NCBI GenBank assembly: GCA_903870245.1 | Contig: CAIQCB010000021.1 | Location: 38,088 to 102,087, forward strand | Direction of reading: 5' to 3' | Source: an uncultured Methylocystaceae bacterium | GTDB lineage: Bacteria > Pseudomonadota > Alphaproteobacteria > Rhizobiales > Beijerinckiaceae | DNA: 64,000 bases | Shown: positions 10,304 through 44,399 of the stretch, one piece after another | Layout of the letters: every line of letters starts with the position of its first letter | Numbering within the stretch: the stretch's first letter is position 1 | Position numbers and translations under genes: made by a program | The notes under the pieces: model-generated | What the model was told of the DNA's origin: nothing | The model's database searches: none | What the model saw: only the letters and a program-made list of their open reading frames with translations

Positions 10304-12304
10304 CTATCCGAACAGTCGTCGGAAGAAACCCTTGGGTTTCTCGGGCGGCGGGGCGAGCGCCGCAGCTTCCGCCCGGGCGCGGGCTTCGGCGCTCTCGTTC
10401 TCGGCGCGCGCGATCAACGCAGCGAGAACCGCTGCGTCTTCGGCCGGCAGCCAGTTGCCGGCCTCACGCCAGGCCAGATAATCGGCGAGCGCCGTCGCCG
10501 CTTCCTGGTCGCCATGTGCGGCGAAATGCGTTTGAGCGACGTCGATCACCGACCTGTCGCCCAGACGTCGCGCAGCCTTGACCGTTTCGTCCCAATGCGC
10601 GGTCCCGGCGGGCAGGCGAATATGCGCGTCGCGTAACGCTGCGGCGTCAGGGCTGCTTGTGGTCAGCTTTTGAAGAATTACAGATTGAGCCGCCGCGTCC
10701 ATGTCGTCGTTGGCGTCAATCGGGGCCATGCCGGACAATCCCAGAGCGGCGAACATCCGGTTCAGCAAAGATGGCGCGAAGCGGCTGTCGCGCGGCGACG
10801 GCGAGACTCCAGCAACGGACAAAGCCCCGGCCCGCGACAGGGCGATCGCGAGCGCAGGATCTGCGGCGTAGGCGGCGAAACCGCCGGGGACCGGACCCAT
10901 AGCGGCGCGGGCCGCGAAGCTTGTGAGCAGCAGAGGATCGAACAAATCCCATTTACCGGCGTTTTCGAAGCGTTCCATCGCACTGGCGCGCGTCAGCGTT
11001 GCATTCAGCGCGGCGACCAGCGTGTCGCGACGGCTGCGCTGGGCGCTGGCGCGTTCAGCGACGATGCGCGCTGCAGCGCCGCTTGGCGCCCGTGCGGCTC
11101 CTGTCGCGCGCCGTAGCATTTCGTCAAGGAGCGGATCGTCATCGTTAATTCGGCGCGGCACAAGGCCATCGACTTCGACTCGCAACAGTCGAAGGAAGGG
11201 CGATCCTCCCGGATCCGAGGGAACAACGCCAAGATCGCCCGCACTTGCCGACGGCGACACTAACCCGACATCATCGCCGAGCGACGCGCCGTAGAAATCG
11301 ATCTCGATGGTTTCGCCGCCGCCAGTCCCCCCGCGATTACCGCCGACGCGTCGGGCGGCCACGCCGCCCGGGCCGGCGATCATGTGATCGAGAATCAGAT
11401 TAAGGAGATTGACGACGACAACCGCCTCCCCGGCCTCCGCAGCGTCGGGATGTTCCGTCGGTTCGCCGGTCGCCTTTCGAATATCATCGAAGGTGAGCGG
11501 GTCGACGACCGGTTCCCCGGCCTGCCTCTGGACCTGAGTCCAGTTTGCGAGCCGCTGGCGCTGTCGCAAGGCCATAGCCACGGACGTCCGTCCGAGCAGG
11601 CTCGCGCTCTCTTCAAAAGACTCAGTCAGTCTTAATCTCAGGACGGCGTGCGGCGCGCCGTTTTCGGCAAGCCAGTGCTGCATGATCGCGAAGGGCGCTT
11701 CGCGCATGTCAGCGGCCGTTTCCAGGTCGTAGGGTTTGGCTTCGAAGGTTAGACGGTTGTGCTCGAGCGGGTAGACCTGGGTCGCCGGCGTCAGGCGGGC
11801 CAAAGACGCGTTCGCGTCGTCGTCGTCGGTGGTCACGGCGCGACGCTGGCCGATCGCCCAGACCAGACGCGCGCCCGCCGCAGCGATTTGCTCGCGCGCC
11901 AACTGATCGAGATCGCCGCGCGCCGACAACGCCGCGACGCGCAAGTCGATGGCGTCGCCGCCGCCCGGCTCCGGCGCGAGCAACATCAACAGTCGCCAGT
12001 CGTTCGCCTCCGGCAGATCGGACGCGCGACTGAGTTCGATAACAAGTCGTCCGCCATCCGGCGCTGTGAAGCGCACGAATCGATGATCGGCGGCAAGATC
12101 GACGAAAACGATGCGGCTACGCCAGCGCGCGGCATCGACGACATCGACCAGGGCGGGGCCATGAAGGAATGCTTCGTCGCGCGCCGAAACGATGGTGAGC
12201 TGCGGTTGGGGCGCAGTATCGCGCCCGCCGTCGTCGCCATCGAAAAAGCCAAGGGCGAGCCGACGCCCGCCATCCCAGAAAAAATCGAGTCGCTCCTGCC
12301 ACAT
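10304..12304 (-). CDS. Hypothetical protein, 666 aa, no recognised domain, with a MinD-like C-terminal amphipathic tail
   Basis: A long ORF with genome-typical codon bias and no signal peptide or TM segment. The extreme C-terminus is PPEKPKGFFRRLFG. It lies 33 bp downstream of the peroxidase gene on the same strand. Confidence 0.7.
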   Translation of the reverse strand: MWQERLDFFWDGGRRLALGFFDGDDGGRDTAPQPQLTIVSARDEAFLHGPALVDVVDAARWRSRIVFVDLAADHRFVRFTAPDGGRLVIELSRASDLPEANDWRLLMLLAPEPGGGDAIDLRVAALSARGDLDQLAREQIAAAGARLVWAIGQRRAVTTDDDDANASLARLTPATQVYPLEHNRLTFEAKPYDLETAADMREAPFAIMQHWLAENGAPHAVLRLRLTESFEESASLLGRTSVAMALRQRQRLANWTQVQRQAGEPVVDPLTFDDIRKATGEPTEHPDAAEAGEAVVVVNLLNLILDHMIAGPGGVAARRVGGNRGGTGGGETIEIDFYGASLGDDVGLVSPSASAGDLGVVPSDPGGSPFLRLLRVEVDGLVPRRINDDDPLLDEMLRRATGAARAPSGAAARIVAERASAQRSRRDTLVAALNATLTRASAMERFENAGKWDLFDPLLLTSFAARAAMGPVPGGFAAYAADPALAIALSRAGALSVAGVSPSPRDSRFAPSLLNRMFAALGLSGMAPIDANDDMDAAAQSVILQKLTTSSPDAAALRDAHIRLPAGTAHWDETVKAARRLGDRSVIDVAQTHFAAHGDQEAATALADYLAWREAGNWLPAEDAAVLAALIARAENESAEARARAEAAALAPPPEKPKGFFRRLFG

Positions 12305-14220: not shown

Positions 14221-16083
14221 TTACGCGTGATCGCCCTCCGTAGTCTCTTCGGGCGACGTTTCGCCGCCGGAGATGCGCCGCCGCGCCTGTGCGCGCTTGA
14301 TTTGCAGCTTGTTGCGCCGCGCGTTCACCCGGGCCATCGCCGCCGCGCCTGTCGGTTGCAAAATCTTTCGGAACTCGTCGCGTTTTTCATGGATCGAGGC
14401 GATCACATACCCCATGGGCACGCCAATATCGACTAGCACGGTTTCGGCGAGCTGCAGGCTCGCCTCGATCGTTTCGGGAATCGCGTCGCTGGCGCCCAAA
14501 CGATAGAGCGATGTCGCATGATCGGCGTCGCGCGCCCGCGCGACGATCACCAGATCCTCCCGGATTTCATGGGCGATCCGGACAATTTCCTCCGCCGCCG
14601 TCGCCTTGTGGACGGTGACGACAAGCGCCCGCGCCTGCTCGACGCCGCAGCGCAGGAGAAAATCGCGCCGCGATGCGTTTCCCCAGTAGATTTCGACGCC
14701 TCTTTCACGTTCTTCGGCGACGATGGAGACGTTGTCATCGACGGCGACATAGGGGATGTCGTGACGCCTGAGCATGTCCCCGACCAGACCGCCGATTCGA
14801 CCAAAGCCGACGATCATGACCCGTCCACTGGCGACGCGCATTTCTGGAGCCAGATGCGCGTAAGCGGAGTCGTCGGCGTCGCGACGCGTCAGCTGAGCGC
14901 CGATCCGGCCAAATAATGGAATGAAGAAAATCGTCAGCGTGACGACGACCATGGCGTCGGCGCCAAAGTGTCCGGGCAAAACGCCGGCGCTCATCGCAGA
15001 GGTGAGCAAGGCAAAGGCGAATTCGCCTCCGGGCGCGAGCAAAAGCGCGGCCTCAATGGCGGCGGCGCGCTCGACGCCAAACAGCAGGGCGAGGGCGATA
15101 ATGATCGCCGTTTTTACGGCGATCAATCCGAGCGCGTTCATCGCCACCGGCGCAGGATCAGCGAAGAGCGCGCCAATATCGAGGCCGGCGCCAATCGAGA
15201 CGAAGAAGAGGCCAAGCAACAGACCCTTGAACGGTTCGATCGTCACCTCGATTTCGCGACGAAACTCGGTCTCCGCCAGCAGCAGTCCGGCAATGAAGGC
15301 GCCCAGACCCATCGACAGGCCGGCTGCGGCCGTCACCAGAGCCTCGCCCACGACGACCAGCAAACAGGCGGCCATGAAGAGTTCGGTGAGTTGCGCAGCG
15401 GCGACCAGTCGAAACATCGGCCGCAACAGCAGGCGACCGAAAATGATCAGTCCGGCGAGCGCCGCCAGCGCCGGCAAAAATGTCGAGAGCGCCGACTGAA
15501 GATCGAAGCCGGCGTCGTGCTGCGCCAGCACCGAGACAAAAAACAGCGCCGGCGCCACCATCAAATCCTGAAGCAGCAACACGGCGAAGGCGACGCGGCC
15601 GGGTGTTTTGTTCAGGCGGCGTTCTTCGGCGAGCACCGGCATAACGACCGCCGTCGATGACATCGCCAGCGCCACCCCCATCAAAATCGAGGGCGCGGCG
15701 GCGACGCCGAACCAGAAATGACCGATGCTCGCCAGCACTCCGCCGCAGACAAACACCTGTGCGAGACCCAGGCCGAAAACGAGATCGCGCATACGCCTCA
15801 GCCGCTCCCACGAGAGCTCCAGGCCGATCATGAACAACAGGAAGACGAGTCCGAATTCTGCGAGAGTCTTAACGCCCTCGATGTCGGCGATGGTGAACAG
15901 GGCGGCGATGTCGCTTTCCGCCGAATATTTGCCGAGTCCGGAAGGACCGAGCGCCGCTCCCGCGATGAGGAAGCCCAGCACGGGACTGATCCGCAGTCGA
16001 TGAAAGAGCGGCACGACAACGCCCGCAGTGGCCAGAAACACCAGCGCTTCGCGATAGGACTCGAGATGCAGGGCGTTCGTCAT
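14221..16083 (-). CDS. Monovalent cation:proton antiporter-2 (CPA2) family K+ efflux protein, KefB/KefC-like with an RCK/TrkA-N domain
   Basis: 620 aa with about 12 TM segments, then VMIVGFGRIGGLVGDML (Rossmann GxGxxG of TrkA-N) and a basic C-terminal tail. Confidence 0.9.
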   Translation of the reverse strand: MTNALHLESYREALVFLATAGVVVPLFHRLRISPVLGFLIAGAALGPSGLGKYSAESDIAALFTIADIEGVKTLAEFGLVFLLFMIGLELSWERLRRMRDLVFGLGLAQVFVCGGVLASIGHFWFGVAAAPSILMGVALAMSSTAVVMPVLAEERRLNKTPGRVAFAVLLLQDLMVAPALFFVSVLAQHDAGFDLQSALSTFLPALAALAGLIIFGRLLLRPMFRLVAAAQLTELFMAACLLVVVGEALVTAAAGLSMGLGAFIAGLLLAETEFRREIEVTIEPFKGLLLGLFFVSIGAGLDIGALFADPAPVAMNALGLIAVKTAIIIALALLFGVERAAAIEAALLLAPGGEFAFALLTSAMSAGVLPGHFGADAMVVVTLTIFFIPLFGRIGAQLTRRDADDSAYAHLAPEMRVASGRVMIVGFGRIGGLVGDMLRRHDIPYVAVDDNVSIVAEERERGVEIYWGNASRRDFLLRCGVEQARALVVTVHKATAAEEIVRIAHEIREDLVIVARARDADHATSLYRLGASDAIPETIEASLQLAETVLVDIGVPMGYVIASIHEKRDEFRKILQPTGAAAMARVNARRNKLQIKRAQARRRISGGETSPEETTEGDHA

Positions 16084-36048: not shown

Positions 36049-36090
36049 GATCGCCGCGACAGAGCCTCTCTGAATTGGCGCGCATTAAAC

Positions 36091-36125
36091 AAAAACGCCC
36101 GGGAGGAAACTCCCGGGCGTTTTTT
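36091..36125. terminator. Bidirectional rho-independent terminator between pntB and the TonB-dependent receptor gene
   Basis: An 11-bp stem, ACGCCCGGGAG (36095-36105) pairing with CTCCCGGGCGT (36110-36120), around a GAAA loop. It is flanked by AAAA (36091-36094) and TTTTT (36121-36125). Confidence 0.85.
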
Positions 36126-36132
36126 CGGATTG

Positions 36133-38907
36133 TCAATCGATCGAAAGTCCGACCGGTTGGACCCAGTTCGCCACATCCGGCGCGCCGCTCTCGCCGCCAG
36201 TGAACGCGCTGGCGAAGATTCCCGGGTCGCCCTTCTTGACCGCGCCCAGCTCATATTTGCCGGACATGTAAAAGGTGCGCTGCGGGAAGGGATGGAACAG
36301 CCAGTATTTCTGGTTATTCAGGTTGTCGACGCCGAAGTCGAAGGTGAGATGATCGTTGTATTTATAGGCTGTCTTGATGTCGACGACCGTGAAGCCGCTC
36401 CAGGCCTGATAGCCGAAGGCCCCGTAGTCGTTGTTGGAGAGCGTTGACCAGACTTTGCTCTGGTAACGCGCTGCAGCCGTGAACGCCCAGTGATCGTCCG
36501 GCCGCCATGTAGCAGTGACTGTGCCGCGCCATTCCGGCACATAAGGCATGTTTTTGCCTGCGATAGATAAGCACCAGGAATCATAGTTGCCGGATAGAAC
36601 GCTCGCCGGGCTGGCCGCCGTCGTTGTCGGCGCCCATGTCGGATCGGAGATGATCCGGGAATTCACCCATGTCGCGCTACCGGTCATTTCGAGGCCCTTC
36701 AGGAGAACATTGTTTTTTTGAAGGGCGACTTCGACGCCGCTGTTGCGGATGCGCTGAATATTAACGTTATTTGTGGTCGCAACGACAATAGGTCCGGGGT
36801 TCAGCGTGGTTTGTCCGACGATCGCGTCCCGAACTTCCTCGTCGAAGAGAGCGACCCTGGCGTTGCCTCCCTCATTGTCGAGCGTGCGCTGGAAGTTGAT
36901 TTCCTTGGTCAGGGCCACCTCCGGCCGGAGATAGGGATTCGGCTGAACATTGTTGCCCGAGGCGCTGTTGAAAGAAAGATTGTAAAGCTCCTTCACGGTT
37001 GGGAAACGGTTAGCCATGCCGATATTTCCATTGACCGTCCACTTTTCATCGATCTTGTATTCGAGCGATCCCTTCGGCGACCAGCGCGTGCTGTAGAGAT
37101 TAGGCTGATAGATTGGCATCATGAGCGCTGCGGCGTTTTTTGGCACGGAAGTGTAGCCAAACCCCGTCGCCGCCTGCGAGCCCGGTTGAGCCTGATTGAC
37201 GCCGTTCGACGCAATCCAGTTCTCGGCCCTCACGCCTGTGGTGAGCTTGAGGTCGGGAACGATGTCGAAAGCGTCCTGCATCCATAGCGCCTTGGTGCGT
37301 GTCGTGCCGCGCGAGATCGTTTGCGCAAATCCGTAGGCAGTCGACTCGCCGCCCGTCCAGCTATAGTTCCAGTAGGTCGGGTTGTTGAGATTGAACTGAT
37401 CGCCATGCAGGCCGAAACTTATGGCGTGGCCTTTGAACAAACCGCTATCCGGACGAAGAATTCCCTTTGCGTCAAGCAAGGTCCAGTAGGTGCCGCCGTT
37501 CTTGATGGTTCGTCCAAACTGCGTCCAGCCTCCATAGGGGAATGCGCCTGACCAGGGGCTGTTCTGGTTTGATTGAAGATAACTGAAGTTAGAGGCGGAG
37601 ATTTCGTAATCGAACAGGCCATTGGTGTTCGATTTGACGGCGCCGGAGTTGACCAGCATCTTTTCCTGCACGCGATAATAGCCGGCGCCGAATTGCTGTA
37701 GAGCGCTTGTGCCGAGCGCCGGCGCCGGCGTTGTGGCGAGCGTGCGTCCCGGCTTGCCGCCCCAATAAGGCCCACCGCCGTCAATCAGATAATTCTGGAT
37801 ATTCGAGGTGCCGTCGTTGGACCAGAACCCCAGCGTATAGGTGGCGCGCGTCGTAGCGTTGATGTCGTAGGCGCCCTTGAATTTGGCGTTGACCTGATCG
37901 TTGGCCAGATTGCCGGTCGCGCCGAGAACGGTCGTCGGTTGATTGAACTTGCCGGATTGATACCAGGCGCTCGGGTAGGGCTGAAAGACTCCTGATGTCG
38001 CGTTCGTGACGAATGTCAGTGGTTGTTGAGAGCCGCGTTGCCAGTTGCCGGAGACGTTCCAGCTGAAGTCGCCGACCTTGTCGCCCACGAAGATCTGGGT
38101 AACGTTGTTCACGAACAGGCGCTGCGTGCCGTATTGCGAGTAATCCTGATAACTGGTGATGTTCTTGGCGGTGACGGTCAATTTCTCCGGCATACGCGTC
38201 GTAATCTTCAATACGCCGCCCATTGAGTTGCCGGGATATTCAGCAGCGTAGGGACCATAAAGGAAGTCAACGCGCTCGATTTCCTCCGGCGCGACAAGAC
38301 CCCAGCGCGGCGCGCCCTGGGTGTTGTCGTTGGCGATCAGCGCCGTCAATAACAGGTCGTCAGCGTAGACAAGGCTGCGCGCCGAGGAGTTGACGCCCCA
38401 TGTGCGCGTTTGCAGCACCGCCTGGGTATCGCCATTGTTGCGTTTGCGCACGAACAGACTTGGCATGTATTTCACCGCGTCTTCCGTATCCACGATATTG
38501 ATCTTGGTCTCGATCTGTTTGCGCGTAATGCTGGCGACGGTGTTGGGCAGATGCCATTTCTCGACGAAAGCCGGCCGGCCATTCGGCAGCGTGGGCGACC
38601 AGATCGACTTCGGCGCATCGGGGTCGAGTTTCTCGCCCAGTGTTTCGCCGGGCGCCGATTGTGCGGTTTGGACGGAAGCCCCGCCGCCGCCCCCGCCAGG
38701 GGAGACCACACGGTTCGCGGTAGTTGCGCGGCCGGTTGCGGTTGGCTTGCCACGAGGCGCGCTGGCGATGCGCTGGGCTTTTTGCGATCCGCCAACATTA
38801 ATGGTCGGCAGGGACTGCTGGGCGCTGGCCGCTTGCGGCCACACTGCGAGACAAACGAGACTGATCGCGCCGGCGGAAACGCCGCGCAGGAGTTTTTTAC
38901 GATACAT
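36133..38907 (-). CDS. TonB-dependent outer-membrane receptor (924 aa) with an extended Gly/Ala-rich N-terminal linker
   Basis: Signal peptide ...WPQAASA. Plug-domain motifs (DTEDAVKYMPSLFVRKRNNGD, RVDFLYGPYAAEYPGNSMGGVLKITT), a long beta-barrel rich in aromatic/Gly/Asn, and a C-terminal aromatic-type end (...PVGLSID is atypical, penultimate region YMSGKYEL). Substrate unknown. Confidence 0.9.
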   Translation of the reverse strand: MYRKKLLRGVSAGAISLVCLAVWPQAASAQQSLPTINVGGSQKAQRIASAPRGKPTATGRATTANRVVSPGGGGGGASVQTAQSAPGETLGEKLDPDAPKSIWSPTLPNGRPAFVEKWHLPNTVASITRKQIETKINIVDTEDAVKYMPSLFVRKRNNGDTQAVLQTRTWGVNSSARSLVYADDLLLTALIANDNTQGAPRWGLVAPEEIERVDFLYGPYAAEYPGNSMGGVLKITTRMPEKLTVTAKNITSYQDYSQYGTQRLFVNNVTQIFVGDKVGDFSWNVSGNWQRGSQQPLTFVTNATSGVFQPYPSAWYQSGKFNQPTTVLGATGNLANDQVNAKFKGAYDINATTRATYTLGFWSNDGTSNIQNYLIDGGGPYWGGKPGRTLATTPAPALGTSALQQFGAGYYRVQEKMLVNSGAVKSNTNGLFDYEISASNFSYLQSNQNSPWSGAFPYGGWTQFGRTIKNGGTYWTLLDAKGILRPDSGLFKGHAISFGLHGDQFNLNNPTYWNYSWTGGESTAYGFAQTISRGTTRTKALWMQDAFDIVPDLKLTTGVRAENWIASNGVNQAQPGSQAATGFGYTSVPKNAAALMMPIYQPNLYSTRWSPKGSLEYKIDEKWTVNGNIGMANRFPTVKELYNLSFNSASGNNVQPNPYLRPEVALTKEINFQRTLDNEGGNARVALFDEEVRDAIVGQTTLNPGPIVVATTNNVNIQRIRNSGVEVALQKNNVLLKGLEMTGSATWVNSRIISDPTWAPTTTAASPASVLSGNYDSWCLSIAGKNMPYVPEWRGTVTATWRPDDHWAFTAAARYQSKVWSTLSNNDYGAFGYQAWSGFTVVDIKTAYKYNDHLTFDFGVDNLNNQKYWLFHPFPQRTFYMSGKYELGAVKKGDPGIFASAFTGGESGAPDVANWVQPVGLSID

Positions 38908-38982
38908 GTTCGTATTCCTTCATGCGCCGTCAGGCGCGACTGATCCATGCGCGGCATTGCGCGCGAATGTTTAGAGAGGGGA

Positions 38983-39414
38983 TCAGATGAAGGCGGGCGG
39001 TCCGCGCGCCGGCGCGCTGCGGTTGAGAGCGATCGCCGCAATCGTTTCGCGGGCGTGCTCGAAGGATAGCTTTTCGTATATCTCCACGATCCGCGCCTCT
39101 GGCGCCGCCCATCCGACGGGAGACGCATCGACGCTCGCCTCGCAGAATCCGCAGGAGGCGTGATCCTGTTGCGAGACGGGGAGTTCTTCTGAGGTCAGGT
39201 CTTTGGCGAATCCTCGTTTCGCGCCGTCCGGCCTTCTGGTCGTCAGGTTAGATCGAGGCTGACTCCAGCGTTGCGCCAGCAACGCTTGCGCCTTGCACCA
39301 CACGTCCATCGCCACCAACCCGCTACCGGTCGACGCCACCCCAGCCATGGGCGCGGCGACTTGCGTCAGCATCGTGACGCAAACGATCAGAGAGGCAAGT
39401 AATTTACGGCGCAT
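38983..39414 (-). CDS. Small exported CxxC protein, DUF2946-like, leader gene of the receptor operon
   Basis: Start chosen at MRRKLLASLIVCVTMLTQVAAPMAGVAS (signal/TM). Internal HASCGFCE motif and C-terminal ...APARGPPAFI. It lies 75 bp upstream of the receptor gene on the same strand. The family assignment is from memory of DUF2946 features and is not HMM-verified. Confidence 0.55.
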   Translation of the reverse strand: MRRKLLASLIVCVTMLTQVAAPMAGVASTGSGLVAMDVWCKAQALLAQRWSQPRSNLTTRRPDGAKRGFAKDLTSEELPVSQQDHASCGFCEASVDASPVGWAAPEARIVEIYEKLSFEHARETIAAIALNRSAPARGPPAFI

Positions 39415-39688
39415 GATCTCAGACGTGATTCGTTCTATGAAAACGCATGCAGAGTGTTCCCGGCGTCTCTGGCCGTAAAGCTCTCCATAGTTCGTAAGAC
39501 TTGAAAAACCCGTCATGCGTCTTTTCGGTCACACTGTGTAAGCCGCGCCTGCCCGTGGCCTTTCGCGCCGGCGACTGTTAACCATTTTTGCGAAATGACA
39601 GCCCATCATCTGACCGGCGCGGGCAGAATCGAAGCATTCCAATATGGCTTGCGTTGTCAGGCCGTAAAAATTCCGTTAAAGTTTATCT

Positions 39689-40093
39689 ATGTCACAAATT
39701 CGCGCCATTCTGTTCCGGTTACGTGCGGCGATTGTTCTCGTCGCCGTTACGGCGGTTTTTGGCGGCGCACTACTCACGACCCCGGCGGCGCGCGCGGCGT
39801 CCTTTTCCTCGGGCCTTTCCGCCCCCTGTGACCACCAACCGGCGAATCAAGCGGCGATAGACGGCAAGTCAGGCGCGCCGATTAAACGGGCGGGCTTTGC
39901 CGGTCATTGTCCGGATTGCTGCCTGTTCGGCGGCTTGGGCGTTCTGGCGCTTCAGGCCCGCGCGTCATTCTTGATCCAGCCGCCGGTCGAGACCGGCGGG
40001 AAGACCCTCTATTTTGTGAGTGGGGCCAATGCGCCGGAACTGCTGCTATCCGGGGCGGCAAACGGGGCCAGAGCGCCGCCCGGTGTGATCTAG
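39689..40093 (+). CDS. Small exported CxxC protein, DUF2946-like, leader gene of the exbBD-tonB operon
   Basis: 134 aa. N-terminal TM/signal (AAIVLVAVTAVFGGALL...ARAAS), GHCPDCCLFGG followed by a hydrophobic stretch, and C-terminal ...GARAPPGVI. It shares the CxxC plus R(A/G)PP-end pattern with 38983..39414. Confidence 0.6.
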   Translation: MSQIRAILFRLRAAIVLVAVTAVFGGALLTTPAARAASFSSGLSAPCDHQPANQAAIDGKSGAPIKRAGFAGHCPDCCLFGGLGVLALQARASFLIQPPVETGGKTLYFVSGANAPELLLSGAANGARAPPGVI

Positions 40094-40212
40094 GCGTCCG
40101 GGTCGGCTTTGGCGTCTCCCGGCAAAACCGGCATACGGCTTCATACAACAATCCACCAGTCACATCCTGCAGCGCCGTCACGCGCGCCTGCAATCAAAAA
40201 CGAGTTCATGTC

Positions 40213-40857
40213 ATGGATCACACGTCGCTTTCGCCTCTCGCCATGTTCATCAACGCCGGCCCGGTCGGCAAATTCGTCATGGCGCTTCTGCTTTTGGCCT
40301 CGGTCTGGACCTGGGTTTTGATCGTCGAGGGCGTCGTCGCCGTCAATCGTATCACCAAGGCGACGAGGTCGGCGCGCGCCGGCGGCCCCGTTGATGTTCT
40401 GGAGCCTGTGGCGGAGGCCGGTCGCGAAGCCTACGCCCTTGACCTTCCCGACGAGTCAAACGGCGAAAAACGCGAGCGTATCGCCGAATATATGAGCCGC
40501 ACGGCCCGCGAATTCCTGACGAAAGCCGAGGGCGGCCTGCCCAATCTCGCAGTCATTTCCTCGGTGGCCCCCTTCATCGGGCTCTTCGGCACGGTTTGGG
40601 GCATTATGACCAGCTTCGCCGGCATTGCCCAATCGCAGGACACCAGCCTCGCTGTCGTCGCGCCCGGCATCGCCGAAGCGCTCGCCGCCACGGCCTATGG
40701 CCTCGCCGCCGCTATTCCGGCGTCGATCGGCTATAACCGCATCGGCTCCTCCTTCGCCCGGCTTGGGCAGGAAGTTGCTCATTACATCGAGGACGAGGCC
40801 CTGCGTATGACCAGCGGCGCCGGCGCCAAGACCCGTTCGCAGAAGGAGGCCGCATAA
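40213..40857 (+). CDS. exbB: MotA/TolQ/ExbB proton-channel family protein
   Basis: Start at [12 protein letters not shown]. Three TM segments, with [19 protein letters not shown] and [22 protein letters not shown] signature motifs. Confidence 0.9.
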
Positions 40858-41315
40858 TGGCGCTTCCCGCACGCTTCAAAAAGAACAACGATCTCTACCA
40901 GCCGCTCGCCGACATCAACGTGACGCCGCTTGTCGACGTCATGCTGGTGTTGCTGATCATCTTTATGGTCACGGCGCCATTGCTGGCGAAGGGCGTCAAG
41001 GTCAACCTGCCGCAGGCCAGCGCTGCCGCGCCGATCAACCAGAAGGATCCGATCGTCGTCACCGTTGGCAAGGACGGCAAGGTTTCGCTTGGCGCCGACG
41101 AAGTGTCGCCGGAATCCCTGATCGATGGCATTCACGCCATGATGGGCGGCGACAACGCCCGGGTCGTTCATGTGCGCGGCGACACCGAAGCCGCCTATGG
41201 CGATGTGGTGGCGATGATGGACCGGCTCGCCACCAACGGCATCACCCATATCGCCATCATGACCAACTCCCGCAGTAAAACAGGCGGGCTGAAAGCAGGA
41301 GGAGGAGCGAAATGA
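40857..41315 (+). CDS. exbD: ExbD/TolR family biopolymer transport protein
   Basis: 152 aa with a TAATG overlap on exbB. Motif [23 protein letters not shown]. Confidence 0.9.
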
Positions 41316-42034
41316 CCGACTTCGCCGCGAATCCAGCCCTGTCCCGCGGCGTGACGCAACGACAGACCGAGCCTCCCGCCGGACCGCCGCCCATCGTCTC
41401 GGGGCGGCTGCGGGCGATCACCTATGCGCTCGTCGTCCTCGCGCATGTCGCCGTATTCGCCGCCTTCCTCACATGGGCAAAGCCCGATGTGATTTCGCTC
41501 GACTCTCTGACCATGGACCTTGTCCAGGAGGGGGATTTCTTCGAGGCCGAGGAGGTCGCCGCCGCCGAGGATACGCCGCCGCCGGAAGTCGTTGAGGAGC
41601 CGGAGCTGGCGCTGCCGCCGCCGGAAGTCATGTCTCCCGACGCGCCGCAATTGCCCTCCACACAAAAGAAAGAGCAGGTCAAGAAAAAGGAGGAGCGCAA
41701 GGAGGTCAAGAACGCACAGCAGGCTCGCGAGGCTCAGGCCAAACGGCATGCTGGCGCGCCCGATGGACGTTCGCAGGGCTCCGGGGTTTCGCAATCGGCC
41801 TGTCTGGCGCATGTCGCAGCCGATCTGCGCCGGCACACGCCGGGCTCGACAAATCTCGGCGCCGGTCGCGCGACCGTTTCGTTCCATGTGAACCCGGGCG
41901 GCGGACTCTCTGGCGTTTCGGCTTCGGGATCGACGCCGGCGCACGCCGCTTTGGCGCGCCGCATCGTGTCCTCGTCGCGCGGCACCGCCGGTTGCGGATC
42001 CGCCTTTGTGAGCCAGAGCTTCTCGTTTCACTGA
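41312..42034 (+). CDS. tonB: TonB-like energy transducer (TM anchor, Pro/Glu/Lys-rich spacer, divergent C-terminal domain)
   Basis: 240 aa with an ATGA overlap on exbD. TM segment [18 protein letters not shown], spacer [19 protein letters not shown]...[13 protein letters not shown], and C-terminal [16 protein letters not shown]...QSFSFH. Confidence 0.75.
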
Positions 42035-42106
42035 ATGCGCGCGCCGGCGATTGTGTTTATCCCCGGCGCGTTCTCCTCTCATGTCTTCAATCATGGAGAA
42101 GAGCGA

Positions 42107-42589
42107 ATGGCGCAGCCTTTGCGACAGGCGTTATGCTTTTTCTTTTTGGCCTTCACCGGCGTCGCTGTCGCCGAAAGTCGAGCCCCGACGTCTGCCAGCG
42201 CGACTCCTCCCGCTGCGCCGGTCATTTCAGAGAGCAAGTTTCTGGGCGCTCTCTACAGCGAAATCGAGAAACACACGCCAGCGGAGAACACGCTGGGCGA
42301 TGGTGAGGTGACGGCGAGTTTTCACGTTGACGCGGCTGGCCGGATCGACAAGGTGACGATAGAAAAAACTTCCAGCCCGGCTCACGCCAACGCCGTGAAG
42401 CAAATTCTTGGCGCAGTCGTCGCGCCGCCGCCGCCCGGCGGCTCGATGGACGTGGGGCAGACGTTCAAATTTCACAAGCCCGAGTCAGAGGAGTCCGTCG
42501 CCCCGTCAGCGCCGGCGCCTTCGATCGCAACATCGCCGGCCGCACCAGCCATGGCGCCAAGGGCTGCGCCACCCGCGCCGGCGCGATAA
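42107..42589 (+). CDS. Secreted stand-alone TonB-C-terminal-like domain protein with a Pro/Ala-rich tail
   Basis: Start chosen at MAQPLRQALCFFFLAFTGVAVA (signal peptide). The core EIEKHTPAENTLGDGEVTASFHVDAAGRIDKVTIEKTSSPAHANAVKQIL...GQTFKFH aligns by eye with the C-terminal domain of the preceding TonB-like protein. Confidence 0.55.
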   Translation: MAQPLRQALCFFFLAFTGVAVAESRAPTSASATPPAAPVISESKFLGALYSEIEKHTPAENTLGDGEVTASFHVDAAGRIDKVTIEKTSSPAHANAVKQILGAVVAPPPPGGSMDVGQTFKFHKPESEESVAPSAPAPSIATSPAAPAMAPRAAPPAPAR

Positions 42590-42624
42590 GTTCCGACACT
42601 ATCCTCCAGAGGGGAGCCGACGCC

Positions 42625-43911
42625 GTGAAACGCATCAGACGATCAGGAAAATCGCTTGTCGCCGCCCTGTTGATGTCGGTAACCGCCGCGTCCGCAGAGG
42701 AACATGCGGGGCCGACTTCGGGCAATGTTGAAAGCGGCCCAAAGCCTGCGATGAAACACACGGCTCCGGCCTGTTCCGACGCCCGGCCAGACTGCGCCAT
42801 GACGGTGTTTCCGGCTTTTGATCGAAAAGGGCGACTTTGGGTCGCTTTTTCTGTCGGCAAGACAGTCTACGCCGCCGCCTCCACAAACGGGGGCAAGAAC
42901 TTTGCGGCGCCGGTCGTCGTCGCGACCGTCGGCGAGACTGGCGTGATCGACTCGCATGGCGATGCGCGTCCGAAGATTGTCGCGATGAATGACGGCGGGC
43001 TGCTGGTCGCCTACACCACGCGCCCTGACAAGCAGATGATCGGCACGATCTTCACCGCACGGTCTACTGATGGCGGCAGGAGTTTCTCGACGCCGCAGGC
43101 GATGCTCGCGGAAGGCGGCCAGCGTTTCGACGCATGGGCGATTTCGCCCAAAGGTCGCATTTACGCAGGGTGGCTCGACAAGACCCATGCGCTGAAAGCC
43201 AAGGCCGAAGGCCGCGACTTCGCCGGCAGCGGCGTCGCATTCGGCTGGTCGGACGATGGCGGCGCGACATTCAATGGTAAGTCAATTCTGATGGACCACG
43301 CCTGCGAGTGCTGCAAAATGTCGGCGGCGCTGGATCGCGACGGTCTGCCCGTCTTTGCGTGGCGTCAGGTTTTCGAGGACGGCGTTCGCGATCATTATGC
43401 GGCGAAGCTGTCCGCCGACGGATCATCGCTCTCGGGCGGTCGCGTCAGCGATGACAACTGGGCGATCAACTCTTGCCCGCATCAGGGTCCGGCGCTCGCG
43501 ATTGATGGGGCCGGCGTCTGGCATGTCGCCTGGTTTACGAAGGGGAAGACCCGTCAGGGTTTATTCTACGCCGCGAGTCGCGATGGCGGCAAAAATTTTT
43601 CCCCGCCGGAGAAGATCGGCGACGAGGCTCACGCGCCCGCCTTTGCGGCCTTGCTCGCCGTAAAGGATCGACTGTATCGGGTCTGGAAGGAGTTTGATGG
43701 CAACGCCACCAGCATTCCGTTCCAGATGTCGCGCGATGGCGGTAAAACCTGGAGCGCGCCGCATGTGCTCGCGACCGCCGCAGACGCTTCCGACAATCCG
43801 CAGCTCGTCGCCAACAACAAGGGCGCAGGCTATCTCTCATGGGTCTCCCATAAGGAGGGATATCGGCTGATCCCTCTCCCTCGCGATGAAAAGAGCGCGT
43901 CAATAAGATGA
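42625..43911 (+). CDS. Exported BNR/Asp-box repeat beta-propeller (sialidase-fold) protein with conserved-looking Cys/His motifs
   Basis: 428 aa, GTG start with an AGAGGGGAG RBS, and a signal peptide. Four Asp-box motifs (STDGGRSF, SDDGGATF, SRDGGKNF, SRDGGKTW). Cys motifs APACSDARPDC, HACECCK and NSCPHQGP. Confidence 0.8.
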   Translation: MKRIRRSGKSLVAALLMSVTAASAEEHAGPTSGNVESGPKPAMKHTAPACSDARPDCAMTVFPAFDRKGRLWVAFSVGKTVYAAASTNGGKNFAAPVVVATVGETGVIDSHGDARPKIVAMNDGGLLVAYTTRPDKQMIGTIFTARSTDGGRSFSTPQAMLAEGGQRFDAWAISPKGRIYAGWLDKTHALKAKAEGRDFAGSGVAFGWSDDGGATFNGKSILMDHACECCKMSAALDRDGLPVFAWRQVFEDGVRDHYAAKLSADGSSLSGGRVSDDNWAINSCPHQGPALAIDGAGVWHVAWFTKGKTRQGLFYAASRDGGKNFSPPEKIGDEAHAPAFAALLAVKDRLYRVWKEFDGNATSIPFQMSRDGGKTWSAPHVLATAADASDNPQLVANNKGAGYLSWVSHKEGYRLIPLPRDEKSASIR

Positions 43912-44399
43912 AGGCTTTAACTGCATATACCGGCGCTGTGCTCGCCGCTGGTCTGCTGTTTTCCTCCGCCGCTCTGGCGCTGGACTTCAAGCCCTACGGA
44001 CGCGGCGATTACGAGACGCTCCTCAAGGCCCGCGCCGGGCGGCCGTTGATCGTGCATTTCTGGTCGGTGATCTGTCCGGCCTGTGTCGCGGAATTGCCGC
44101 AATGGGCGAAGCTGGCCGCGGCGCGCAAAGACGTCGATGTCATTTTCGTCGACACCGACGATGCGGAGGAGCGCGACCGCGCCGCAGGGCGTCTGGAGAA
44201 GGCGGGATTGGCCAGCGCTTCCCATTACGGCTTCGCCGACAATTTCGTCGAGAAGCTTTATTTCGAGGTTGATCGCAACTGGCGCGGCGAACTGCCGTTC
44301 ACCGTGCTGGTGACCCGGGATGGCGCCCGGACGACTCTCGCCGGTGGTCTTGACGATCCCGATCTGGTCAATTGGTTGAGCAGGAATGTCGGCAAATAG
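43908..44399 (+). CDS. TlpA/ResA-like periplasmic thioredoxin-fold thiol:disulfide oxidoreductase
   Basis: 163 aa with an ATGA overlap on the preceding gene and a signal peptide. Motif HFWSVICPACVAELPQW (CxxC). Confidence 0.8.
   Translation: MKALTAYTGAVLAAGLLFSSAALALDFKPYGRGDYETLLKARAGRPLIVHFWSVICPACVAELPQWAKLAAARKDVDVIFVDTDDAEERDRAAGRLEKAGLASASHYGFADNFVEKLYFEVDRNWRGELPFTVLVTRDGARTTLAGGLDDPDLVNWLSRNVGK

Follow-up and report, generated by a model that had tools for sequence, protein, structure and literature searches.

A conserved divergent TonB-dependent locus of Methylocystaceae with two putative copper-sensing leader peptides and a Cys/His beta-propeller

Where do methanotrophs that make no methanobactin obtain the copper for their particulate methane monooxygenase (pMMO)? 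A locus that bears on this question lies on contig CAIQCB010000021.1 of an uncultured Methylocystaceae bacterium, within a stretch of 64,000 nucleotides (hereafter, the window) that homologues place in a Methylocystis-like methanotroph. It offers a candidate route made up of a TonB-dependent receptor (TBDR), its own TonB motor, a Cys/His beta-propeller with a private reductase, which is a TlpA-like thioredoxin-fold protein (Tlp), and two leader peptides that should report copper status. A first-pass annotation of the same DNA had described nine open reading frames (ORFs) in two divergent operons, and had read them as import of a soft metal combined with redox handling. All nine ORFs are present at the coordinates it gave, the divergent control region between the two operons is as it described, and the gene overlaps it claimed can be read directly from the DNA (Table 1), as can one further junction, at which the TGA stop of tonB abuts an ATG directly. 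The profile searches it had proposed, run with Pfam and NCBIfam, assigned domains across the locus. For the comparison with other genomes, one genome per species was scanned with a propeller profile, and the window proteins were then mapped onto the matching loci. We lean towards reading the locus as a copper-limitation-induced, TonB-dependent copper acquisition system. The analysis shows its genes, motifs, synteny, fusions and folds, while copper as the metal, the way in which copper would regulate the operons and the part played by the propeller are what we infer.

In Bordetella, CruR (DUF2946) is an upstream ORF whose nascent peptide senses copper through a CxxC motif (Roy et al. 2022, PMC9426467). 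Copper relieves the arrest of CruR translation at a C-terminal RAPP motif, leading to Rho-dependent termination before the gene of a TonB-dependent transporter (TBDT), and the family is recognized by an export signal, a CxxC, an RAPP located 3 residues from the end, a spacing of ~45 residues, within one or two, between the two motifs and a long downstream spacer (PMC9426467). CutF of Rhodobacter, a relative, is likewise an exported peptide that senses copper in its nascent state, and RAPP and RGPP are reported to be the strongest arrest motifs (PMC12992588). Each of the two small CxxC ORFs of the window is the first ORF of its operon, and by inspection both begin with an export signal composed of a basic n-region, a hydrophobic h-region and an AxA-like site. 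In the left ORF, CGFC (residues 88-91) is followed by 45 residues, RGPP (137-140) and 3 residues to the C-terminus; in the right ORF, CPDCC (residues 74-78) is followed by 49-50 residues, RAPP (128-131) and, again, 3 residues to the C-terminus. The start of the left ORF at 39414 is backed by a conservation boundary in the DNA alignment.

We encoded this arrangement as a regular expression (CxxC-x38-56-R[AG]PP-x0-8-end) and ran it on 14,833 ORF segments in 81 related loci. It matched 85 segments, each located immediately before either exbB or the receptor gene, and within the window it matched these two ORFs only. Since the matches fall solely at the two expected positions, the arrangement is not due to chance. 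Both leaders are kept in ~33 Methylocystaceae loci, with the left-leader motif conserved upstream of the TBDR in ~33 loci and the right-leader tail NGARAPP in ~50. Furthermore, the same type of leader heads a TBDR-propeller-Tlp-TonB-ExbBD cluster in three Terasakiella genomes and in locus L064, where DUF2946 scores 49 bits. Judged from their sequences, the two small ORFs, which had been taken for periplasmic parts, carry the hallmarks of CruR and are best read as cis-acting leader peptides of the CruR/CutF type, not as structural components.

The control region between the two leaders contains conserved blocks. The ~70 nt preceding the ATG of the right leader (39620-39688) are nearly invariant among close relatives, and a promoter-like site (TTGTCA-17-TAAAGT, 39654-39682) ends only 7 nt before that ATG; the mRNA of the right leader may therefore be nearly leaderless. 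The spacer between the left leader and the TBDR gene, 75 nt long in the window, measures about 65-100 nt in 33 loci. The spacer between the right leader and exbB is 116 nt long in the window, where it holds an A/C-rich, G-poor tract; across 48 loci it ranges from 111 to 177 nt, the median being 154 nt. The cruR-crtA spacer of Bordetella is 162 nt long (PMC9426467).

The right operon encodes an exported beta-propeller, for which the sialidase fold assigned in the first-pass annotation is borne out by a BNR_2 match and by Foldseek, which returned generic sialidase/lectin propellers only (TM-score ~0.5, identity 12-17%) for an AlphaFold2 model of good quality scores (pLDDT 88.6, pTM 0.86). A PDB sequence search likewise yielded generic propellers only. 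The four Asp boxes claimed are found under a strict definition, and become five if S-x-N-x-G is allowed; the N-terminal Cys pair, in contrast, is not the C-x7-C described but C-x6-C (C50, C57). None of 56 aligned members of the propeller family matches the FRIP motif of sialidases ([FYW]R[IVL]P). The window propeller has exactly six Cys residues, all invariant (C50, C57, C227, C229, C230 and C284), and the invariant motifs of the family are H225, C227-E-C229-C230, R255-D-H257, C284-P-H286 and H300, with E228, R231, GExRPKI and W(K/Q)EFDG also conserved. Conservation of the Cys motifs had been set as a test of whether this locus is out of the ordinary, and the Cys/His motifs proved invariant down to 32-44% identity. 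Two of the conserved motifs served as scan patterns and the rest did not, so that the conservation of those two is partly forced. Going by the order of strands in the model, we infer that the conserved residues occupy inter-blade loops and B-C loops and so share one face of the propeller.

Between the signal peptide and the first Cys of the propeller lies a His/Met-rich patch (10% vs 4% His+Met). The signal itself is of the signal-peptidase-I type in Methylocystaceae and contains a lipobox in Methylococcales. With 1,279 representative clusters (50% identity) at E<=1e-30, this is a large family, for which our literature search found no descriptive paper; 119 of 127 full-length representatives carry CxCC. 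An Acidobacteria metagenome-assembled genome (MAG) contains a 1,224-aa ORF (L080, 7445-11119) in which a propeller stands behind a long unannotated N-terminal region; this propeller retains DHACECCR and CPHHGP and has lost the N-terminal Cys pair.

The partner of the propeller is the Tlp. It scores 27.6 bits against a Redoxin threshold of 26.6, has a signal peptide seen by inspection and carries CPAC as its CxxC, and it reaches 23.3 bits with the TlpA equivalog NF047696, whose cut-off is 230. Its motifs WSVICPAC and WRGELPFT are conserved across all lineages, and the Tlp partners form a subfamily of their own, defined by WS-x-x-C-x-x-C and W-x-GELP. The Tlp gene lies directly downstream of the propeller gene in at least 65 of 76 loci, and in 22 of the best 149 representatives the propeller is fused to a C-terminal Tlp-like domain (E 1e-10 to 4e-50). 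For comparison, the CxCC of CopG binds a tetranuclear copper cluster, and TlpA reduces the Cys residues of copper sites before metallation (review PMC7558416). In Methylosinus trichosporium OB3b, the genes CQW49_RS04905-RS04920 encode, in order, a sialidase family protein, a redoxin, a second sialidase family protein and a DsbD-family reductase, and in the copper transcriptome of this strain (PMC12811070) their transcripts per million are ~2.5-4-fold lower with 1 uM Cu, on methane and on methanol. They may constitute a paralogous propeller/redoxin system with an electron donor.

The scan recovered the full cluster, with its order kept, in ~55 genomes of Methylocystis, Methylosinus, Methylocapsa and other Beijerinckiaceae, usually beside pntB. 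In one MAG (L003) the propeller is 93% identical and the flanks are as in the window. The possibility that the accessory genes are scattered relative to receptors, raised as a test in the first-pass annotation, is not what we observe: besides the Tlp adjacency given above, 49 of 57 loci contain a TBDR no more than 8 kb away, and ExbB and ExbD are present in 52 of 57. The left operon has been lost in eight Methylocystaceae loci (L004, L009, L010, L013, L021, L038, L044 and L056), all of which retain the right operon from leader through Tlp; in several of them pntB abuts the right leader directly. The adjacent Tlp is missing in Methylosinus and in Methylocapsa aurea.

Loci whose propellers show 32-44% identity come from Methylococcales, Terasakiella, Thiohalomonadaceae, Thiotrichaceae, Oleiphilaceae and other bins, and are arranged on one strand as (DUF2946)-TBDR-propeller-Tlp-TonB-ExbB-ExbD, with the DUF2946 gene not always present. 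In the majority of these distant loci, the receptor is of another TBDR subfamily and shares 14-17% identity with that of the window; what stays constant is thus the combination of a TBDR, a propeller and a Tlp, and not any single receptor clade. Both alpha- and gammaproteobacterial methanotrophs feature prominently in the propeller family, and the core TBDR-propeller-Tlp module, with TonB/ExbBD nearby, is also found in sulfur oxidisers. In a Thiohalomonadaceae MAG (L068), a PCuAC copper chaperone (11753-12244, E 9e-39) with a His/Met-rich tail is encoded 35 nt downstream of the Tlp gene, on the same strand. A different layout is seen in a Methylobacter tundripaludum metagenome contig (L082, 4859-17886) and in L070 and L065, in which two TBDR genes precede a lipoprotein propeller that is followed by an ABC ATPase and two ABC-2/DUF3526 permeases, then DedA, TonB, ExbB and ExbD, with no adjacent Tlp. 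A Fur-box-like site (16/19 matches, 0 in 100 shuffles) occurs in L082 at 15344-15362, inside the DedA-like gene and ~500 nt upstream of tonB.

The motor genes precede the propeller in the right operon, and the ATGGAT start of exbB is kept across loci. TonB has a His-containing transmembrane anchor, a Pro/Glu/Lys-rich spacer and a divergent C-terminal domain: NF008082 covers its N-terminal and Pro-rich part only, and Pfam TonB_C finds no match in it. The nature of this C-terminus is indicated by a hidden Markov model of the family to which the free TonB C-terminal domain encoded downstream belongs, which matches the C-terminus of the window TonB (E 9e-42) and canonical TonB C-terminal domains (9e-13, 5e-9). 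The ORF of the free domain (184 aa from 42035) scores just below the gathering thresholds of Pfam TonB_2/TonB_C. The same hidden Markov model and Foldseek, whose best matches are the C-terminal domains of TonB, HasB, FusB and TolA, support the fold that the first-pass annotation proposed for a secreted stand-alone TonB-C-like protein, and the predicted core is alpha-beta-beta-alpha-beta (pLDDT 78-90). The start does need revision, since 42107, preceded by a GGAGAAG Shine-Dalgarno sequence and yielding a signal peptide, appears more likely than 42035. The family numbers 218 proteins, all from Methylocystaceae, with genes in 1-3 tandem copies. The window protein has Pro/Ala-rich tails. Because it has a cleavable-type signal peptide and no transmembrane anchor, it is not an energy transducer.

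The receptor itself is composed of a low-complexity N-terminal extension of ~110 aa, a plug and a 22-strand barrel. NCBIfam subfamily models all score far below their cut-offs, among them the OprC/NosA equivalog TIGR01778 (26.6 bits vs 472) and the haem/haemoglobin TBDR model TIGR01785 (118 bits vs 317). The best matches of a PDB profile search are PhuR (5e-50), PqqU and YncD; the CrtA structure 9RVQ is matched over the last 145 positions only (E 1e-16), and a single-sequence PDB search did not recover it. H494, H501 and H872 are conserved within the receptor clade, with no conserved Cys or Met. Two other cargoes were considered and rejected: lanthanides, given that the LutH-like gene of OB3b (CQW49_RS02145) stands in a different context and that LanA is rare in Methylocystaceae, and cobalamin, given that riboswitch searches of the window and of 8 distant loci were negative. 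OB3b also encodes a PepSY_TM protein, two hypothetical proteins and a TBDR in CQW49_RS01925-RS01940, for which the data taken from PMC12811070 include a ~50-fold change between copper/carbon-source conditions; this cluster looks like one of CrtA/CrpH type, distinct from the window locus.

Taken together, these data suggest how the locus might work. Each divergent operon would be gated by a CruR-type leader whose CxxC would sample copper during translation and export. By analogy with Bordetella CruR, scarcity of copper would leave the ribosome stalled at the C-terminal R(A/G)PP, with the downstream genes on, and bound copper would relieve the stall, expression then being attenuated in the long spacer. 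The receptor of the left operon and the dedicated ExbB-ExbD-TonB motor of the right operon would together bring a copper species into the periplasm, where three accessories encoded by the right operon would take part. The Cys/His site of the propeller would accept the imported copper, or extract and process it. The co-translated TlpA-like reductase would counter the oxidising conditions of the periplasm and hold the CxCC/CPH site in its reduced form, much as TlpA acts on ScoI and CoxB. The free TonB C-terminal domain would be a lineage-specific add-on which, as a guess, probably modulates TonB-box engagement. Because no inner-membrane importer is encoded at the locus or in its flanks, we would expect it to be consumed in the periplasm itself, for instance by pMMO or haem-copper oxidases, once the copper has crossed the outer membrane.

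Several observations weigh against this reading. The receptor, by sequence, is outside the copper TBDT clades CrtA and OprC, and the solved structures closest to it are of receptors with haem, PQQ or unknown cargo. The CruR hallmarks and the PCuAC gene of L068 do strengthen the copper lead within the soft-metal import and redox handling first proposed. That PCuAC gene is the only one found in a search of 85 loci. The leaders had been described as DUF2946-type proteins, which agrees with their CruR hallmarks, whereas their Pfam scores (PF11162; 19.4 bits for 38983-39414 and 22.8 bits for 39689-40093) fall below the gathering score of 23.7. The spacing from CxxC to RAPP in the right leader, and the 48-50 residues in its orthologues, depart from 45, and a recognisable leader is missing from most gammaproteobacterial loci. 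As for the spacers, those of the window have the C-rich/G-poor composition of Rho sites, yet no C>G skew is conserved across loci, and RNAalifold across loci found no hairpin supported by covariation, so that no particular mode of attenuation is supported. Finally, DUF2946-like genes are also found at the head of Zn/Cd/Co efflux operons, and the ABC-2 genes that follow the Methylobacter propellers resemble the Zur-regulated znuGHI genes of Caulobacter, which lie beside the TBDR gene znuK.

The last two points are also arguments for zinc, or another thiophilic cation (Ni, Co, Cd), as the imported metal, with the leader CxxC sensing it and the Cys3-4/His set of the propeller forming a zinc site. 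DUF2946 genes accompanied by a Zur box lie upstream of czrCBA in Caulobacter, CzcI is a member of the family, and the His-rich patches (HAHHH) of Methylococcales propellers are as typical of Zn/Ni as of Cu. CzcI-type proteins, however, do not have the C-terminal Pro arrest motif, whereas both window leaders end in RAPP or RGPP plus 3 residues, like CruR. Searches for a Zur-type box, both in the control region and near the Methylobacter receptors, were negative, the chaperone gene adjoining Tlp in L068 speaks for copper, and a dedicated reductase suits the redox-sensitive thiolate chemistry of Cu(I). On balance, we regard zinc or another such cation as unlikely.

We hold it to be just as improbable that the propeller and Tlp act as a redox enzyme on the imported cargo, opening a disulfide chalkophore or reducing chelated Cu(II) and so freeing copper in the periplasm. 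Conserved polar and charged residues in the inter-blade loops (D224, E228, R231, R255-D-H257 and E/D113-x-R115-x-K117) do resemble an active site, the propeller has a thioredoxin-fold domain as its obligatory partner, in some cases by fusion, and receptors of the CrtA type import chelated, not free, copper. Yet no metallophore biosynthesis genes are present in or beside the locus, Foldseek gave no structural match of the propeller to a redox enzyme, and its six Cys residues may be plain metal ligands or disulfides.

Less probable still is a propeller that docks on the receptor to capture its cargo, instead of accepting it downstream, in the manner of BtuG and XusB of Bacteroidota, which are seven-bladed propeller lids of TBDTs. 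The propeller gene does lie directly downstream of the TBDR gene, on the same strand, in 15 distant loci, and the Methylococcales lipobox would fit such an arrangement. The window propeller, on the other hand, has no lipobox, its signal being of the signal-peptidase-I type, and it is encoded in the operon other than that of the TBDR; its constant partner is an exported thioredoxin-like protein, acting in the periplasm, and neither BtuG nor XusB appears among its top 50 structural matches. To our knowledge, Proteobacteria are without the lipoprotein export signal of Bacteroidota. An ordinary iron or haem receptor beside an unrelated operon, suggested by what the receptor matches best in NCBIfam and the PDB (TIGR01785; PhuR, 8THE), is very improbable given how far under its cut-off the haem family score falls, the lack of any His between the FRAP-like and NPNL-like boxes of the receptor, the absence of an Irr iron control element (ICE) box from the control region, and the synteny, kept across families, of two operons that each start with a CxxC leader.

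Table 1. Features of the locus, in window coordinates.
Feature	Position	Strand	Details
TonB-dependent receptor	36133..38907	-	924 aa; Pfam Plug + TonB_dep_Rec_b-barrel
Spacer, left leader ORF to TBDR; candidate attenuator	38908..38982	-	75 nt
Left leader ORF, putative CruR/CutF type	38983..39414	-	143 aa; CGFC, RGPP; weak DUF2946
Divergent control region	39415..39688	.	274 bp; conserved blocks
Right leader ORF, putative CruR/CutF type	39689..40093	+	134 aa; CPDCC, RAPP; weak DUF2946
Spacer, right leader to exbB; candidate attenuator	40094..40209	+	116 nt
ExbB	40210..40857	+	Pfam MotA_ExbB, 107 bits
ExbD	40857..41315	+	Pfam ExbD, 103 bits; TAATG overlap with exbB
TonB	41312..42034	+	NF008082 N-terminal/Pro-rich match; ATGA overlap with exbD
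Exported stand-alone TonB C-terminal-domain paralogue	42107..42589	+	Weak TonB_2/TonB_C; ORF open from 42035
Exported Cys/His beta-propeller	42625..43911	+	428 aa; BNR_2
Exported TlpA-like thioredoxin-fold protein	43908..44399	+	Redoxin; ATGA overlap with propeller gene

The genes flanking the locus encode housekeeping functions (pntAA/AB/B, an ECH_2 hydratase, phosphoenolpyruvate synthase, GroEL, FabI and LeuA). No PepSY domain was found in the nine genes or their flanks, and no CcdA or DsbD in the annotated parts of the window. The gap between the convergent pntB and TBDR genes (36049-36132) gives several sub-threshold Rfam matches on both strands (His_leader, STnc310), which most likely reflect a bidirectional terminator hairpin.

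In its regulatory logic and in the pairing of a leader with a TBDT, the locus is of the CruR kind already described. New in it are a different receptor clade, two leaders in a divergent layout, the lack of PepSY_TM, a propeller-Tlp module that is sometimes fused, and free TonB C-terminal domains. Because it combines a conserved two-operon import system, putative copper-sensing leaders and a Cys-rich propeller with a thioredoxin-like partner, the locus is a good candidate for a methanobactin-free copper route. If copper acquisition is indeed its function, the recently discovered arrest-peptide mechanism of CruR would be seen to serve a second receptor clade as well as a divergent pair of operons, and a first functional context would be available for a large group of proteins that are labelled 'sialidase family protein' and currently mistaken for glycosidases. 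A wider and distinctly more tentative proposal is that the CxCC/CPH propeller and its TlpA-like reductase constitute a new and widely distributed module (~1,300 clusters at 50% identity, with some fusions) that accepts copper from TonB-imported complexes, or strips it from them, and so completes acquisition in the periplasm; in methanotrophs, this module would be the main methanobactin-independent supply of pMMO, switched by twin copper-sensing arrest peptides.

Parts of this arrangement can be recognised in several known systems. OprC/NosA and MbnT carry out TonB-dependent copper import across the outer membrane, as proposed here; here, however, the receptor has no conserved Cys/Met binding motif, and neither a sigma/anti-sigma pair of the FecIR type nor mbn genes are present. 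The propeller shares its six-/seven-bladed fold and Asp boxes with GH33 sialidases and BNR proteins, but sialidases do not have its invariant Cys/His set. BtuG and XusB are also propellers that are encoded beside a TBDT and handle its cargo; they are, however, surface-exposed lids with neither a Cys cluster nor a thioredoxin partner. CopG uses a CxCC for the ligands of its copper cluster, in a thioredoxin-like fold and in copper resistance, whereas the window motif belongs to a propeller in an uptake context. In the TlpA-ScoI/CoxB systems of Bradyrhizobium (PMC7558416), an exported thioredoxin-fold CxxC protein is likewise paired with a Cys protein whose copper site must be reduced before it binds copper, the partner there being a Sco or CuA domain and here a propeller.

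The regulatory parallels are with Rhodobacter and Bordetella. In the Rhodobacter CutF-CutO-CutG system, the DUF2946-like leader CutF controls downstream genes, as we propose for the window leaders. The cruR-crtA(bfrG)-crpH operon of Bordetella pertussis (PMC9426467; Hachmi et al. 2026, PMC12914433) also has a long spacer followed by a TBDT gene, and some crtA loci carry exbBD-tonB, as the window does. The Bordetella survey also listed 'AhpC_TSA' genes in cruR operons (PMC9426467), and these may be of the same Tlp family. A PepSY_TM partner lies downstream in >75% of crtA loci; the locus described here, in contrast, has no such partner (CrpH), and its receptor is outside the CrtA cluster. Unlike Bordetella, furthermore, the window locus has two leaders heading two divergent operons, and its accessories are a Cys/His propeller, a TlpA-like protein and a free TonB C-terminal domain.

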